Assembly: GCA_038204425.1 (NCBI GenBank)
Contig: JBBRCZ010000002.1
Coordinates: 160,001 to 224,000, forward strand
Direction of reading: 5' to 3'
DNA: 64,000 nt
DNA from: Spirochaetia bacterium
GTDB lineage: Bacteria > Spirochaetota > Spirochaetia > DSM-27196 > Salinispiraceae
Made by a program: the position numbers and the translations under genes. Under the pieces are notes generated by a model that was not told where the DNA came from, searched no databases, and saw only the letters and a program-made list of their open reading frames with translations. Below are positions 43,897-52,653 of this stretch, one piece after another. Within the stretch, counting starts at the first letter, position 1. Every line of letters starts with the position of its first letter.

Positions 43897-44265
43897 AAAT
43901 TGGCAGTGATTTCTGCGATCGCCGCAAAAATAGGTTGTACGGCCCTGACGCTTCGACAGTGGGTGGAGCAGTCGGAGAAAGACCAAGGGTTACAAGAAGG
44001 CTTAACGACCGGTGAGCGGGAGCAACTGAGGCAAGTTCCGCAGGAAAATAAAGAACTCAATCGTTTGAACTCCTTGCGTATCGTCTTGAAATACAAGGAG
44101 TTGTGAGAGGAAAGGTGCAACGTGAGTTGTATGCTGATAGACCCAACCAACTATGGGCGGGATTTGTCTCTATGGCTTTCGCAATTGATGCGTTTTCACC
44201 AACAAGTTCTGACCTTAGTTGCCGGACTTAATTAAAAAAGGCTCCGTTAAACCCGGGGTGGTTCA
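43897..44265 (+). mobile_element. IS3-family (IS629/IS51-like) remnant
   Basis: OrfA fragment IAAKIGC..TLRQWV...LTTGERE, OrfB fragments RPNQLW and AFAIDAFS, right end ...CCCGGGGTGGTTCA. Confidence 0.85.
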
Positions 44266-44431
44266 ATGCCGAATACTTAGCCGAGGACTTGCTTTTGGAT
44301 CATTGGCGACTTCGTAAACGGTTGGTCCACTTCCGTCTTGAGTCTTGCGGACAGTTGAAGCTCTGAACCCTATGGAATACTTCATTCAGTTTCGCCCTCC
44401 TACTGGCGAAAACTATCTTGACAGGTATTGC
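44263..44431 (-). mobile_element. Left end of a second IS3-family element with truncated OrfA
   Basis: Terminal-repeat-like sequence, GGAGG RBS, ATG 44385 giving MKYSIGFRASTVRK...VYEVA (IS3 OrfA-like start), cut by the other IS end. Confidence 0.55.
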
Positions 44432-44509
44432 ACAGGCAAGGGATCGTTGCGGAAATTTTCTGGGGCAATAGCCTACCAAATACAGCTTCCTATATTTTTG
44501 TAATACCCA

Positions 44510-44538
44510 TTGACAAATCCTATGGTAGATTCTATGCT
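44510..44538 (+). promoter_or_regulatory. Near-consensus sigma70 promoter
   Basis: TTGACA-N17-TATGCT, followed by GGAGG RBS and ATG 44561. Confidence 0.65.
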
Positions 44539-44560
44539 TGGAAAAAGAAAGGGGGAGGGA

Positions 44561-45121
44561 ATGACCATGCATTCTATAAAAGTCGAAAAAATAGTCAATG
44601 AACTCACTAGAGAAATAGTTGACTACAATTTCCCTACATTTGGTGATCTGTATAGCACTCAGTTAGAATTTTGGGCGGCGATAAAAAAATTTCATCGTGA
44701 TATTCTCGATTATGCAAGAACTATTATTGATAAGGAGGCTACGGACAAAGAAGACGAAGTTCTTAATGGTGATCCAGAAAGTCATTATACAAGGCTTGCT
44801 GAGAAAGCGCGATTGAGTAACAGGCAAGTCAAAAAATATATCGACGCATGCGTCGAAAACAGTGAAGCACTTTTTTTAGACCACCCGTTACCCTTTGTCT
44901 TGGATCAAAAAATTGCTAGCGGACGAGTAGAATTTAAGTATCGAGGCAGAGGTTTTTTTGCCAATTATGACGTGCAAGGTTTTCTCGATGGTCATAAACC
45001 GGTGGAGAACCCCGCTATTTATTCTTTTGATGCCACCTATCATGAATATCGTGATCACGGAAAAATTCATAGGGACCATGCACCTGCGGTAAGAATTGAC
45101 TATCCCGCGACACTTACTTAA
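44561..45121 (+). CDS. Hypothetical protein with C-terminal HRxxxPA-motif domain
   Basis: PAI...EYRDHGKIHRDHAPAV. Promoter and RBS present. Confidence 0.6.
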   Translation: MTMHSIKVEKIVNELTREIVDYNFPTFGDLYSTQLEFWAAIKKFHRDILDYARTIIDKEATDKEDEVLNGDPESHYTRLAEKARLSNRQVKKYIDACVENSEALFLDHPLPFVLDQKIASGRVEFKYRGRGFFANYDVQGFLDGHKPVENPAIYSFDATYHEYRDHGKIHRDHAPAVRIDYPATLT

Positions 45122-45231
45122 ACTTGCTTACAGACAATTTACCTTAGGTTTTTTGATATTTGTTGGCAGATTTTGGTATCCCGGTTCTAATGGCGCATGA
45201 TTTCGTTGCAAAAATAAAGGAGAAGTATCGT

Positions 45232-45846
45232 ATGAAAATAGTTTTTAAGGGTATTGTTTTGATTACCGTGTTGTCTATGGTTTTGGCTATGTCTGGCTGT
45301 TTTACTCTCGCGTCCAATCTAATCTTAAAAAATTAAGTTTATGAAGTCAAGTCCGATAGTGGCATAGTCTACGCTGTAGCCCAGTTTGAGGTTTACAGAG
45401 TACTGTTTTCTTTTGCCAAAATGCGCATAGGTGTTAACAAAGCTGCACCTCAAGATGGGGTTAGCATTTGGTTAAAGTATGCGCATAGTTCTGACATTTA
45501 TTTTGGGGCTGTCACCTTTGATGTGGATGGCATAAAAACCAAATTGGTGGAACTAAGCAAATCCCAGGCAACACGTGTTGATGAATTGTACGTGGGAGAA
45601 GGATTCTTTGGCTTTAGCGCAGAGACTATTGCCGAGGATGTTAAGGGCAAACTCAAAGATCTTGTGGATTCGATAGTTAATGGCAAAAAAGTTTCGGTCA
45701 AAGTTGAATGCGATTACAATGCATCTAGTCTCAAACTAGGTAGACAAAAGAATGCTCAAACTTATACCTTTACTGCAAATGATCAAATGATTCTTGCTGA
45801 CTGGTCCACCAGAATAGGCTCACCAGTTCCTGCTCAGTCCCAATAG
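45232..45846 (+). pseudogene. Lipoprotein gene interrupted by an in-frame TAA
   Basis: AAGGAG RBS, MKIVFKG...LAMSG-C lipobox, TAA at 45334-45336, same frame continues into the 45421-45846 ORF. Confidence 0.7.
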
Positions 45847-45868
45847 TTCCTAATAAATAGAACCAAGC

Positions 45869-45913
45869 AATCAGAATGTCTCATACAAGACATTCTGATT
45901 TTTTTGCTTTTTT
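45869..45913. terminator. Intrinsic terminator between convergent genes
   Basis: Perfect 13-bp stem AATCAGAATGTCT-N6-AGACATTCTGATT followed by a T tract. Confidence 0.8.
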
Positions 45914-46912
45914 TTACTCATTTTTGTTGAGCAATATTTGCAGTCCATCAAGTACTATCAATAAATTCTGATCGGTATTCCTTTTGTAAGCATCGTCTTT
46001 ATCAACTCTTGGACCGGTTACATCTGGTTTTTTTTTACCAAAGCACCAAATGCCGTTAAGCGGCAAACCTATCAATTCTGATTTTAATTCTCCATCTTCG
46101 TTTTTAAGATAGCTAGCTTTGACTCTTCTAACGGGGTTAAAGCGTCTTAAGGTAAATTCTTGTGCGTTGCCAGGGTCCTTGGTCGATTGAAACAGAAGAT
46201 CAACGGCAATCTCGCGCACCAACTCGATCTGTTTTTCTACGTTTTTAAAAAAATAGCGGCCTTCATCGTTTTGAGTCATTAAGCTATTTTGCTCTGACTT
46301 TTGAGAAGCACTACATTCTTTAAGAAAAGCACTAGGAATTGACTGGCTATGATTAATGAGCTCTATCAAATGAGGTTGCTTCTGAATCAAAATCAAACCC
46401 AACCAGCTTGTACCTTGTTGTTGTAAAAATCTAGTCAGTAGACTATTGATCTGATAGAAATCAGGTCCGTTGTAACCGTCGCTAGTGTAGGTAAAGTACC
46501 GGTCTATTTTTTTAGTAAGCGACGACAAATGTTCTTTCCAGCTTGACCCACTAGCTCCAAGATACACCCGTATCGAATCTACATTTTTTAAAATGCTGGG
46601 GCAGCGATAGTTTGGAGGGATGCTCGTATTGACAATAGGTTTTCCAATTTGCTTGACTAGGTATTTATCGATGCTTTTCGTAATGGACTGCCAATGGTCC
46701 AGCAAAACCTGTACGTTTTCGTCTTCTCCGGCATATTTTATAGAATAGGCGTCCTTAAATTCGTTTGAATGGGGTGCATTGTAAAGTACAGATGTTTTTT
46801 CAAATTTAAACGCGTTATTTTTTAGGTCGTCAATTTCTTTAAAGCAATCCAAAACATAAAAATCGTTGTTCCTAATACTGCGTCTTGTTCCTTCATATTT
46901 TCTGTTTCGCAT
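45914..46912 (-). CDS. Hypothetical protein, putative remote Tus (replication terminus-binding protein) homolog
   Basis: Intact 332-aa ORF with colinear motif resemblance to E. coli Tus, judged by eye (see findings). Confidence 0.5.
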   Translation of the reverse strand: MRNRKYEGTRRSIRNNDFYVLDCFKEIDDLKNNAFKFEKTSVLYNAPHSNEFKDAYSIKYAGEDENVQVLLDHWQSITKSIDKYLVKQIGKPIVNTSIPPNYRCPSILKNVDSIRVYLGASGSSWKEHLSSLTKKIDRYFTYTSDGYNGPDFYQINSLLTRFLQQQGTSWLGLILIQKQPHLIELINHSQSIPSAFLKECSASQKSEQNSLMTQNDEGRYFFKNVEKQIELVREIAVDLLFQSTKDPGNAQEFTLRRFNPVRRVKASYLKNEDGELKSELIGLPLNGIWCFGKKKPDVTGPRVDKDDAYKRNTDQNLLIVLDGLQILLNKNE

Positions 46913-47185
46913 TTCGTATTATCTCAATTATCGTAAATAAATCAAGTGCTAAAACCAGAAGCACTAGGTGCATTCAAACAGCCATTTTTCGTCCCGTGTA
47001 TATCGTCTTGTAATACCCTTAAAGTATACTGCCCGATGAGGTATCTTAGTCTCCAGAAGGTGGCGATAGAGCAGGGCTCTAATGAAATAGAGGTACTCTT
47101 GGAGATACTGGTCTCAGTTGTGATAACTAAGTATTTCCCTAGGTTACCAGCTTAGCCTATTTAAACAACTTTAGAATGGCATTTA

Positions 47186-47500
47186 AGCTTGGATCAATAC
47201 TACTAAAAAGAAGCAAAAGAGAACCAAGAGCCTTTTATTGGTATGCACAGCTATAAGTGTGGGGACAAACTCTATTTTGTTCACGGCAATACAGATGGTC
47301 TTTTTGAAGATTGTGATGACCAAGATCTTCTGGCTATATTTGATCTAGATTGCACCTATAGCGAATATCAAAAAAATGGATATTTGCACAGGGAGGATAG
47401 ACTGCCAGCTGGCATAGTCTGGTATGACGCTCAAATTTGAGAAAATTTTTGGGTAGATCATAAAAAAATTGATTCGCATGAAACAGAAATTCCAATATAA
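47186..47500 (+). pseudogene. Interrupted HRxxxPA-motif paralog
   Basis: LDQYY*KEAKENQEPFIGMHSYK...EYQKNGYLHREDRLPA...AQI*ENFWVDH, one frame with TAA 47204 and TGA 47438. Confidence 0.55.
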
Positions 47501-47526
47501 TTAATCAAAAAAACAGGAGGTGCTAA

Positions 47527-47901
47527 ATGGGAGCACTAACATACAAGGAACCAGAACAATCAAACTCAAGCAGTCGATTTTTGTATTTACAGCAATTTCT
47601 AAAAGAGGACAAGACACCAATGATGGGCAGCGTCACTTACAAGGACCCAAAGAATGGTGTCGAGTACGTTCTCCAACTGGACAGAGATGGCTATGTGCAT
47701 GGCCACGAAGAAGGTGACATTCCTGCTATTAAGAGCAAAGATGGAACCTATGCAGAATTTCGCAACCACGGCAAACTGCACCGAGGCTTTCAACGCCCAG
47801 CAATAGTTATTGAAACAGAAACCGAGTTAATCCAAGAACACTGGATCAATAATGTTGTTACCTTAATCAAACATTACGACAAGAGCAAGATCAAAGTTTG
47901 A
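47527..47901 (+). CDS. Small HRxxxPA-motif protein
   Basis: AGGAGG RBS, PAIKSKDGTYAEFRNHGKLHRGFQRPAIV. Confidence 0.65.
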   Translation: MGALTYKEPEQSNSSSRFLYLQQFLKEDKTPMMGSVTYKDPKNGVEYVLQLDRDGYVHGHEEGDIPAIKSKDGTYAEFRNHGKLHRGFQRPAIVIETETELIQEHWINNVVTLIKHYDKSKIKV

Positions 47902-47997
47902 AAGATGATGGTGTCTATCGTAACATTAAATTACCTAAAAATATTAAACTGGCATGGACAAAAACGTCGTCGGAGTTCTCCCTATTAATCTTGGAAA

Positions 47998-48243
47998 ATG
48001 GTATTAGACGACGAACCCTGTACAATAGGTATATGCGGGGAGAGAGATACGCTTAATATTAACCAGTCTGACCAAATTAAAGAACTACAAAGGGCAAGAT
48101 TTGCACCTTCCGAAATCGCTGAACGAGGGGATGTTAACCGTAAAACGGTGAACAAATACATGATTATCGTTGACTACAGGCCAACTTTAGAAAACCAGAA
48201 AGTAGAAAAATCTAAGTTTGCCCGTTTGATACAAGCGCGGTAA
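47998..48243 (+). pseudogene. IS21-family IstA N-terminal HTH remnant
   Basis: IKELQ...SEIAERGDVNRKTVNKYM, resembling the IstA N-terminus. Truncated. Confidence 0.55.
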
Positions 48244-48382
48244 ATTGCACAGGATACCTTGCTCCTGATGGCACTTTAGTAATTCACAACCCTGCAATCA
48301 CTGATAAAGGAACGATGTTTAGACCAAAAAACGCGCAAGAATATTTTGATGCACATTGAAAAATTTTAAAGCATCCAGTTTT

Positions 48383-49777
48383 TTATACATGTTTTCCTCC
48401 TCGATTCGATACGGGAAGAAGTTTAAGATCCGCGAATAACCACGGAACCATTTCTCCGACGGTTGGGTGAGGGATGACTGTATTCTGCAAAGTGGAGTAT
48501 GGAAGACCTGCCTGTATTGCAAGGGCGAGCATACCGATAACTTCGTCTCCTCCCACTCCAAATATGGTTGCCCCTAGGAGTTTTCCGCTGCTCTTTTCTA
48601 CCACTACTTTCATTGTACCCAGCGTCTCTGCTTTCTCTTTTGCCCGGCTTACCAAACTCATCGGCATGGTTCCTACAAGCGCATCGATTCCCTTTTCGGC
48701 TGCCTCTGTTTCGTTCATTCCCACGCGGGCAAGGGGCGGATCTATGTACATCACATAGGTCCTAGTTCTGTCAGAAATGCGCCGCTTCCCCTGTTTGAAA
48801 AAATGATCCAGAAACACCTGTCCATCGTGGACGGAGGTGTGGGTAAAGGCTCCCTTTCCGTTAACATCACCCAGGGCATAGATATGTTTCTTGCTTGTCC
48901 GGCCGTAATCGTCCACAGAAATATATCCGTTTTTATCCGTCTCTATGCCCGCCGCACTAAGATTTAACTCTGCGCTTGAGGGGATGCGTCCTGTTGCCAT
49001 AAGAATATGGGTGCCCGTGATTTCATGTTCATCTTTTCCCTGGGCATACCGAAGGATTATTTTTTTTCCTTTTTGCTCTACATACAAGGGCGAACTGTTA
49101 AGGTGGAAATCCATACCCTCGGCTTCCAGAAGTTCCTGAGCGATCGTACTTATTTCAGGATCTTCACGGTAAACTATGCGCTCGCCATGTTCGAATACGG
49201 TCACTCTGCTGCCAAAGCGTCGGAATGCCTGACCGAATTCCAGGCCGATGTAGGATCCTCCCACGATGAGAAGATGTTCCGGAAGTTCCTTCAGATCAAG
49301 AATACCCCTGTTGTTAAGCCAGGGAATGGTATTAATTCCGAGAATGTCCGGTTTCCTCGCGCGTGTTCCCGTATGGATTATGATTGCTTCCCCCCGGATC
49401 GTAGATTCTCCGACAGCTACCGTGTGCTCATCGATGAAACGTCCTTGGGCGGGGTAGAAGTCACTTACCTCTTCAAGCCACTTTCTGAAGCCCGAAGTGG
49501 CGTCATTACGGATTGCATTGACCCGTTCCATTACCCCTGCGAAGTTGATCTGCATCTTGGGAACCTCAATTCCAAAATCGTCGGAGCGGCGGACCATCCG
49601 TGCCACCCGTGCACTTGCAACTAAGGCCTTGGTCGGGGTGCATCCCCAGTTCACGCAAGTCCCACCCACTCGGTCTTCTTCTATAATGGCAACGGAAAGT
49701 TTCTCCTTGAGTATTTTGGGAAGAATGGTTCCCGTGGCCTGTCCCGTTCCTATAAGAATTACATCGTATGATTTCAT
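48383..49777 (-). CDS. Class I pyridine nucleotide-disulfide oxidoreductase (mercuric-reductase-like family)
   Basis: GTGQA, GGTCVNWGCTPTK redox disulfide, GGSYIGLE, ALGDV, HPTVGE. GGAGG RBS before ATG 49777. No MerA C-terminal CC. Confidence 0.9.
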   Translation of the reverse strand: MKSYDVILIGTGQATGTILPKILKEKLSVAIIEEDRVGGTCVNWGCTPTKALVASARVARMVRRSDDFGIEVPKMQINFAGVMERVNAIRNDATSGFRKWLEEVSDFYPAQGRFIDEHTVAVGESTIRGEAIIIHTGTRARKPDILGINTIPWLNNRGILDLKELPEHLLIVGGSYIGLEFGQAFRRFGSRVTVFEHGERIVYREDPEISTIAQELLEAEGMDFHLNSSPLYVEQKGKKIILRYAQGKDEHEITGTHILMATGRIPSSAELNLSAAGIETDKNGYISVDDYGRTSKKHIYALGDVNGKGAFTHTSVHDGQVFLDHFFKQGKRRISDRTRTYVMYIDPPLARVGMNETEAAEKGIDALVGTMPMSLVSRAKEKAETLGTMKVVVEKSSGKLLGATIFGVGGDEVIGMLALAIQAGLPYSTLQNTVIPHPTVGEMVPWLFADLKLLPVSNRGGKHV

Positions 49778-49884
49778 GTAGCCTCCTTTTTCGGCAGAAG
49801 AATGTTGTACCCCAAGGTTTGCCGGACATTCGATGATGACCGTTTTACTATCAACCAAGTTACAGCTTTGGTTACCGCAACAGT

Positions 49885-50772
49885 TCAATCCGCACTGTCG
49901 GCTTCATCCATAAGCAACGTGCGAACCGACTGTAATTCTTTAAGTCGATCCTGATTTACTTCCGGGTAACTCATACCAAGCCCATTCAGCGTTTCGATGA
50001 TAATTTTGGAGACAATCAAACGGGCATTATGCTTATTATCGGCGGGGACAACATACCAAGGCGCTTCCTTTGTGCTGGTTGCACTCAGGCATTCCTGGTA
50101 CGCCGCTTGGTAATTACCCCAAAATTTTCGCTCTTGGATGTCAGCAAGGCTGAATTTCCAGTTCTTGTCTGGCTCATCAATCCGCGCCAGAAAACGATTG
50201 CTCTGTTCCGCTTTGGACAAGTGCAGGAAGAATTTAATAATGCGGGTTCCGTTTTGATAAAGATGATGCTCCATATCAACGATAGAACGAAAGCGCTCTT
50301 TCCAAACAGCCTGCCCGTCGAGCAACTCAATTGGGAGTCCTTGACTGTGAAGAATCTCCGGATGGACGCGGACGATGAGCACATCCTCATAGTAGGAACG
50401 GTTGAAGATCCCGATGCGCCCGCGCTCTGGTAAACGGCGGGTTGTGCGCCAAAGAAAATCATGGTCTAGTTCTTCAGCGGTGGGTTCTTTAAAGCTGAAA
50501 ACCTGGCAACCTTGTGGGTTGACACCGGACATGACGTGCCGGATAGTACCGTCTTTGCCGGCAGCGTCCATACCCTGGAAAATCAACAGCAATGCATATT
50601 GATTGGAGGCATAATGCAAGCGTTGTAGAGAACTCAACTCATCCACGTGTTCTTCCAGAATATTTTTATAATTTTTCTTCGATTTGAAAAAAGGCTTCAC
50701 AATAGTTGGCCATTCCCTCAGTTCTACTCTTTTACCGGCGTGGACACAAAAGTCATCTGATTTAATTTTCAT
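49885..50772 (-). CDS. ppk2: Polyphosphate kinase 2 family protein (class III-like)
   Basis: [42 protein letters not shown]. Confidence 0.92.
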
Positions 50773-50971
50773 AATTACCTCTATTTTTTGGAATGAATTG
50801 TGTAGCTACAGCGTTGAAGTTTTTGGATGCTAGATAATGTGTTTTGACAAGACCTACTTCCAGTTTAACATGCTATAGCCATCCTAGATTCAAGCAACAA
50901 GTACAACGATTATAGCTCTTCTAGGAATTATTCCTTAGGGTGTTTTTACCAACTTTAGAATCTTCGATTTC

Positions 50972-51115
50972 CTAAAAAGAGGTTTGAAAATCCTGAAAGA
51001 GCCGTTCTTTTTTTTGTTTTTTCGAAGCCTCCGATGTTAAGCGAGCCCAGTACTTTATAGGAACAACTACGGCGGTGTGGCGCCTTTTTTCATCGGTTAG
51101 GTATTGAATGGTCAT
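50972..51115 (-). pseudogene. Antitoxin-like small-protein remnant
   Basis: AAGGAGGT RBS, MTIQYLTDEKRRHTAVVVPIKYW (QYxTDxxGxxTAVVxP antitoxin-like pattern). Probable premature TAG; no toxin seen. Confidence 0.5.
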
Positions 51116-51384
51116 AAGTTACCTCCTTGGATAATAATACTAAGAATTAGCTTGTTGGTCTTGGTTTTTCTCATTTGCGTGTATTTAATCGTCTAAAAAT
51201 ACCCATCACTCCTTGGAGATTTTTGCAGGTGCTTTTTGGCGCATTAGTGCATTTTTTTTGCGGTAACTTTCTCCTTCAAATAATAGATAACCCACTAGAG
51301 GACAGACCCCAAATAAAAGCAAAGCGAGTCCTAGATCTTCGCGGGAAGCCCAGGCGCGACCAAGGGAGGGCACCAGCGAGGCTC

Positions 51385-51495
51385 CACCATCAGTGAACGC
51401 TTTCGGGACTGCTCAAACGCGCCGACATAAAAAAGCCGGAAATCTCCACGCATGCTATCCGGCATTACACGGCCACCCATTTACTGGAAAACGCT
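51385..51495 (+). pseudogene. Tyrosine recombinase/integrase fragment
   Basis: LLKRADIKKPEISTHAIRHYTATHLLEN matches the box II HxxRH...ATHLL motif. Confidence 0.75.
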
Positions 51496-52440
51496 GCTGC
51501 AGCTGGAGCTGCGACTTTGGCAAATCTATCACTAAAAATAGCAGGTTGGGGTTCTGTCATTATTATGGTTTTTACTTTACAGTTGAGGATTGTTGCTCCT
51601 GCGACTGCAAGTTAAGCTTCCAGATTTGAATGCACTAACACTAGATAAAGCTAAGAAAAGGATCAATCAAGTTCTTACTAACCCAGAAACTCAAACAGGA
51701 ACCGGTGTTGGCATTAAGACAGGAAAACCCGAGACATTATTGATAGAATTATTGATAACTGTACTATTTCCCAAGAAGTTATAGAAAAAATTAACTTCAT
51801 TGATAACATATTTAAGGAAAAAACTGTTTTAGTTGAAGAATGTCTATGGGGCATTAGAATCGAAACTAATCTCCTATACAATAATGTTGAAAATTGGTAT
51901 TTTTTTTGAATTCCCGAGGAACGCAAAGTAGATTGGTTGACATAAATTACTTAAAGATGGCAATCCAGAAAACTAAACATATAAATTTTTGCACTAATTT
52001 AGATCTTATAGTTCCACCAATTCCGGTCTAAGAACTCTTTAAATCTCAACTGAGTCTGTCCCCAAGTAAAGAAATAGCAAAACGTGGCGTGAAAGCTGCA
52101 GGATCAGAATTACCGGAGATTTCAGGTGCTCACGCCCAGAAATGGGGAGAACTTATTGATAGTTTGAAACCATTTTGGGCGAAGTGGAGCGACTATGAAT
52201 GAGACAAATCATAGGCTTACGAAACTCTTTGTGGGGAACAAGATCTTTATTTCCATTTACTTTTTTTTTAGGATTGTTCTCTTCTGCATTGTTCTCTATG
52301 TATTCGATATATCTTTTGAACACAATACCTTCTTTGTGAAAGTTATTTGAGTTCATTAGAGTAGTGATGCCTGAAAGTGGGCCGCCAATCCATCCCCTGC
52401 CGGTTGGCCTCCTTCTGGCGAAACCAATCTTGACAGGTAC

Positions 52441-52514
52441 TGCCCCGAGCGCGATTCGAACGCGCGACCTACAGCTTAGGAGGCTGTCGCTCTATCCAAC
52501 TGAGCTACCGGAGC
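52441..52514 (-). tRNA. tRNA-Arg (anticodon CCT), CCA not encoded
   Basis: GCTCCGG-TAGCTCAGTTGGATAGAGC-G-ACAGC-CTCCTAA-GCTGT-AGGTC-GCGCGTTCGAATCGCGC-TCGGGGCA cloverleaf. Confidence 0.96.
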
Positions 52515-52653
52515 ATGCTTGGAATGGATCTATTGTTCCAGCGCGCTAAGTAATAACACAGTTTTGCTTTAGTGAAAAGCATGCAGTGACGGCACTACAT
52601 AAATTGTCTAGGTCGCGCTTTTGACTAAAGCCAGGCTGGCATTGTCCGACACT

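Follow-up and report, generated by a model that had tools for sequence, protein, structure and literature searches.

The gene at positions 45914 to 46912 of this 64,000-nucleotide stretch (the window) raises the question of whether a spirochaete-like bacterium can carry a relative of Tus, the protein that binds Ter sites in E. coli. A sequence-only reading of the window had described the gene as an intact orphan in a decaying island and proposed that it encodes a divergent Tus-fold DNA-binding protein carried by a mobile element. The frame is indeed open over its whole length, with 332 codons and no internal stop. The predicted fold of its product, P0001, has Tus as its best match and mobile-element remnants surround the gene, but sequence comparison gives the proposal no support. 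Judged mainly from the model, P0001 is likely a far-diverged relative of Tus brought in by a mobile element. The relevant features are:

45914..46912, minus strand: intact gene of the predicted Tus-fold family, encoding P0001, 332 amino acids (aa); from the open reading frame (ORF), family search, model and predicted-fold search

46529..46582, minus strand: codons 111-128, a long beta-strand predicted by DSSP of the model and, in a putative register, corresponding to the first interdomain strand of Tus (about residues 165-181)

46109..46159, minus strand: codons 252-268, a predicted long beta-strand with family-invariant R256, R262 and R263, the putative counterpart of the Tus strand carrying R232-R241

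All five alignment-based models of P0001 had predicted local distance difference test scores (pLDDT) of 74.8-77.5, with a predicted template modelling score (pTM) of 0.55, and no Tus sequence or template entered the modelling. In the fold search Tus, which had been named beforehand, ranked first of 48,161 with a 4-unit gap in Z. The match is near full length, whereas unrelated rows align over at most 106 residues, and every solved Tus-fold match in the fold searches is a replication terminator. The root-mean-square deviation (rmsd) to Tus is near 9 Å, with 9% identity on structure. The model has two alpha/beta domains joined by long interdomain strands, and DSSP places these strands at residues 111-128 and 252-268; the residues that separate them are mostly helical. 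In Tus, two long interdomain strands likewise lie around a helical C-domain. A viral fold library returned nothing for the model at E<=0.001. A single-sequence model (pLDDT 31) was discarded and never searched.

Sequence comparison did not recover this putative relationship. Eight peptide pairs had been matched to Tus by eye. All eight are present in both P0001 and E. coli Tus (sequence from NC_000913.3), but they do not exceed chance: their summed BLOSUM62 score is 91, and when the blocks could be placed freely in either protein, shuffled P0001 scored 148.7±8.3 and 200 of 200 shuffles reached 91. The best free chain of the real protein, 145, was equalled or beaten in 127 of 200 shuffles. A control holding the proposed Tus blocks fixed (0 of 200 shuffles) was rejected as circular, the blocks having been chosen to fit, and we do not rely on the free-block result for a relative, P0126 (2 of 200 shuffles), which was one of four proteins tried. 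Global alignment of P0001 with E. coli Tus gave z=1.27, with 108 of 1000 shuffles equally high, and the best BLASTP E value was 6.7. PF05472, the Pfam Ter/Tus profile, matched neither P0001 nor any of the 10 family members described below, and a genome-wide search with it gave nothing at E<=10, whereas the E. coli control matched. We also built Tus profiles from 7 to 12 diverse Tus proteins; nearly all of 120 listed homologues are >80% alike, and one of the 120 was used in the 12-sequence profile. Against these profiles the family gave hhalign values of 0.2-0.4%, which are not significant, and HMM scores in both directions lay inside the shuffle range. The mean z between family and Tus proteins was 0.17 over 72 pairs, compared with at least 3.0 for true distant Tus pairs; the best local pair, which 1 of 2000 shuffles equalled, was selected as the best of those 72. 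By sequence the family is not a member of PF05472 and should not be filed there. P0001 also had no match in Pfam (E<=0.1), PHROG or NCBIfam (E<=1), or PDB sequences (E<=10).

P0001 is no orphan, since nine distant relatives exist. A filter-only search of 1.84 billion representatives found three (E 5.6e-11 to 8.1e-5), a profile search added four and a metagenome scan two more, on contigs L010 and L011. A 55-residue match from the same scan (L012, E=2e-5) is probably due to chance and was kept out of every alignment. The 10 aligned sequences fall into about five distinct groups, with 24 invariant columns and 19-24% identity to P0001, and Pfam gave no significant match for any of them (best E 0.066). 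The homologs sought in Spirochaetota did not appear: in overlapping samples of 98 further genomes from the order, 400 from the class and 400 from the phylum, the family profile had no match, and P0001 was not found among 40 related genomes. No significant tblastn match was obtained for P0001, P0126 or P0128 in 72,556 plasmids, where P0001 matches at E 0.2-0.9 (Lactococcus relaxases and one Vibrio) were taken as noise, or for P0001 in 50,697 phages. Genome and viral contigs yielded no further relatives to short P0128- and P0126-group patterns, which distant members may escape.

The two metagenome relatives lie in the context of a mobile element. L010 (1915-8697) and L011 (1916-8698), 97.8% alike over 11.2 kb and counted as a single element type, carry a compact mobilization/replication module. 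It runs from a relaxase-like protein with LPD7 (37% identical to proteobacterial plasmid proteins) through a ribbon-helix-helix (RHH)/MobC-like protein, three unassigned genes, one of them presumably ParA/StbB-like, a second RHH-like protein, an AAA_25 RepA-type helicase and a 170-201-aa gene to the family gene. Downstream the cargo differs, with a 1022-aa SMC/AAA_21 ATPase in L010, whose start we take to be PHP-like, and an NHL-repeat protein in L011. The ratio of nonsynonymous to synonymous substitution rates between the two family genes is 0.19, and the gene is therefore under purifying selection in this pair. Eleven L010 proteins had no tblastn match in the present genome at E<=1e-3, a weak negative.

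Placing P0001 on Tus residue by residue depends on an inferred register. The model favours a gapless alignment of P0001 96-145 on Tus 150-199 because it has two long strands flanking a helical region, as in Tus. hhalign chose this segment twice, and the best local alignment of a single pair also uses it. Over 17 columns the favoured register scores -0.4, compared with -10.2 for the register of the sequence-only reading, whose 7-residue block alone scores higher (4.1 vs 0.6); no register diagonal beats shuffled columns. If the favoured register is right, blocks 1, 2, 6, 7 and 8 of that reading would be about rightly placed and blocks 3-5 would not. On the second strand, a by-eye register aligns the family motif R..HPH.RR with Tus R232, Q/H237 and R241, which contact DNA, as does R157. 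The family reads R/H/R at these positions and P0001 itself T254, N259 and R263. In the same by-eye register R103 falls at Tus R157 in P0001 only, and Tus F170 and W172, invariant in 11 Tus proteins, read V116 and L118.

The favoured register leaves about 12 residues of P0001 (90-101) for Tus 76-155. Most of that region would be missing from the family, including F140, H144 and G149, the cytosine-pocket lock residues of E. coli Tus as listed in Table 1 of PMC10331603. Because the helix bearing them has so little room, the lock pocket is probably absent. The earlier suggestion that Gln replaces His144 rests on the register that the model disfavours; neither putative register gives a His pocket. 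The stretch between the long strands appears to be longer in the family by about 65 helical residues, which include an invariant L..Q..WLG motif. The first long strand is followed by a helix, directly after which P0127, another relative, carries an insertion of about 75 residues; this region therefore tolerates large inserts.

Two groups of known proteins help to place the family. It has no detectable sequence similarity to E. coli Tus (PDB 1ECR, 4XR0-4XR2; PF05472), from which, in the putative register, P0001 differs in two lengths: it has about 55 residues fewer ahead of the Y156-R157 equivalent, in the lock-helix region, and about 65 more between the long strands. Unlike E. coli Tus-Ter, it has no TerB-like site upstream of its gene and a host outside the gammaproteobacteria. 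Plasmid-borne Tus proteins (IncC, Vibrio, Salinimonas and Pseudomonas megaplasmids) likewise lie on mobile DNA with a patchy distribution; PMC6549158 describes mobile tus genes. They are annotated as terminus-binding and are linked to E. coli Tus by sequence (z at least 3.0), whereas the P0001 family is not. The strand HRxGxPH[VI]RAR of the Pseudomonas group resembles R[VI]R[HY]PH[VI]xRR of the P0001 family, and this group also lacks the E. coli F140, H144 and G149. Across annotated plasmid Tus proteins the H144 column holds H, R or W, and the Pseudomonas group has not kept F140 or G149; loss of the lock is therefore compatible with a barrier. In the alignment, the Pseudomonas megaplasmid proteins (L007, L015-L018) carry Trp in the His144 column and lack counterparts of Phe140 and Gly149, which suggests a different or absent lock in that subfamily.

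What might such a protein do? We see about an even chance that this is a rare Tus-fold family whose members bind, as monomers, an asymmetric and element-specific site and form a one-way replication barrier for the carrier element. The protein would clamp its own site, with strands 111-128 and 252-268 entering the major groove as the Tus interdomain strands do and the conserved Arg/His motif, aligned with Tus R232/Q237/R241, contacting DNA. The barrier may stop one fork near the element origin or limit run-on replication, in the manner of the Ter sites near the origin of plasmid R1, which act on its replication (PMC10331603). It would probably work without the E. coli cytosine-lock pocket, and the copy in the window is likely stranded cargo or a passenger of its element. 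More tentatively, the family may be a second, sequence-invisible Tus branch on small mobilizable elements outside gammaproteobacteria, with the lock helix lost, a new helical subdomain and lock-independent directional arrest. If so, the known range of fork traps would widen and nature would supply a test of whether polarity needs the C6 mousetrap (the C6 lock is described in PMC8707476); true absence of the lock helix would allow a direct test of how far polar fork arrest depends on the cytosine lock. The HMM survey in PMC6549158 places tus in gammaproteobacteria only and proposes its domestication from plasmids. A Tus-fold family invisible to HMMs, occurring next to relaxase/helicase modules and in a spirochaete-type genome, would imply a fold of greater age and wider spread on mobile DNA than profile surveys reveal, and could supply new protein-site pairs for engineered replication barriers. 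Among the matches listed in the literature, with subscription journals and supplements outside reach, no Tus-like protein was reported in spirochaetes.

A cognate site did not emerge. The TerB 13-mer has no exact and five one-mismatch copies in the 2.84-Mb genome and none within two mismatches in 44396-52443, L010 or L011, though a site of other sequence would escape this search. Motif discovery found nothing common to the P0001 locus and L010 above shuffles, and repeat scans gave nothing convincing (43 self-matching 15-mers, mostly A/T runs, vs 16-38 in 10 crude shuffles). Upstream of repA, L010 (8950-9050) and L011 (8954-9050) have two or three imperfect 16-nt direct repeats, candidate iterons or family-protein sites that are no stronger than the frequent chance output of the repeat finder.

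This lack of Ter-like repeats is also what one would see if the protein had the Tus fold and bound DNA for another purpose, as a repressor, an accessory factor at an origin or origin of transfer, or an obstacle to the replication of incoming phages or plasmids. We consider this possible, though doubtful. It draws on the same predicted-fold evidence, and the missing lock counterparts, the extra helical residues with a motif absent from Tus in the favoured register, and a cargo position next to defence-like genes, with the SMC/AAA_21 ATPase as the next gene in L010, all suit it. Nevertheless, the solved Tus-fold matches are all terminators, and lock residues vary among annotated plasmid Tus as well. 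DNA binding without a fork block would mean a Tus-fold protein with another job. It is unlikely that the Tus match itself is a modelling or alignment artefact, with a shallow alignment producing a loosely Tus-like two-domain model of an unrelated mobile-element family. The small number of sequences and groups, the rmsd and pTM, the absence of significant sequence signal from any method, and ESM Atlas, which had no usable match for P0001 or P0126, fit such an artefact; however, they stand against a pre-named first rank at nearly full length and five models of similar pLDDT built without Tus. A domesticated chromosomal fork-trap protein of this lineage is highly improbable: the gene is intact and chromosomal, on a 284-kb contig that also carries housekeeping genes, but the order, class and phylum samples lack the family, the gene lies in a low-GC patch with element remnants, and GC skew, mostly positive along contig C2, has no sustained switch at the locus. 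Four above-cut-off FlaA matches (PF04620) in this genome, vs 0 of 14 control genomes, support calling the host spirochaete-like.

The description of a decaying island held up. GC content is 0.385-0.406 over 44001-48000, vs about 0.44-0.51 in most of the window, and the patch carries transposase-like stumps and pieces that recur on other contigs of the genome. It is flanked by a sulfate-permease gene on one side and a pyridine-nucleotide oxidoreductase gene on the other. Its features are:

43900..44235, plus strand: transposase-like remnants at the left edge, seen in translations and presumably IS3-type, a label given by eye with no library match behind it; part recurs at C1:511364-511427

44300..44431, plus strand: dispersed end of a mobile element; its 36-nt core recurs at window position 52408 and on C1, C2, C4 and C16

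45855..45914, no strand: imperfect inverted repeat (27-nt arms, 78%) from a repeat scan, between the P0001 gene and a converging 141-aa ORF

47998..48243, plus strand: short fragment with a helix-turn-helix in translation, a probable transposase stump that we take to be IS21-type; weak NCBIfam match (E=0.0074), far under cut-off

52408..52515, minus strand: the 36-nt core for the second time, adjoining tRNA-Arg(CCT) at 52440-52515 on its 3' side (repeat and tRNA scans)

The core lies at 44396-44431 and 52408-52443, with further copies at C2:49453, 51515 and 55265, C1:574200 and 575313, C4:196692 and C16:51626. Both orientations occur, copies often lie close to contig ends or to tRNA genes, and some extend about 130 nt. 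Because the core is dispersed in this way, we read it as an element end, leaving the patch without defined borders, and the pair at 44396 and 52408 was ruled out as tRNA attachment sites. It resembles the terminus of an insertion sequence family that has decayed or is non-autonomous, and no transposase came to light for it.

The inverted repeat at 45855..45914 is a possible shared terminator of the P0001 gene and the 141-aa ORF. In the region 45233-45846, that ORF, at 45421, is closely preceded by a short ORF, running to 45336, that encodes a lipoprotein-type signal with a terminal Cys, and the two are probably a single lipoprotein gene split by a stop. Three ORFs or fragments (44510-45121, 47243-47440 and 47527-47901) have in common the motif G.lHR....PA; the two that were scanned had no Pfam match, and the motif resembles HREDGPA/MORN-like repeats that occur in giant viruses and in large phages.
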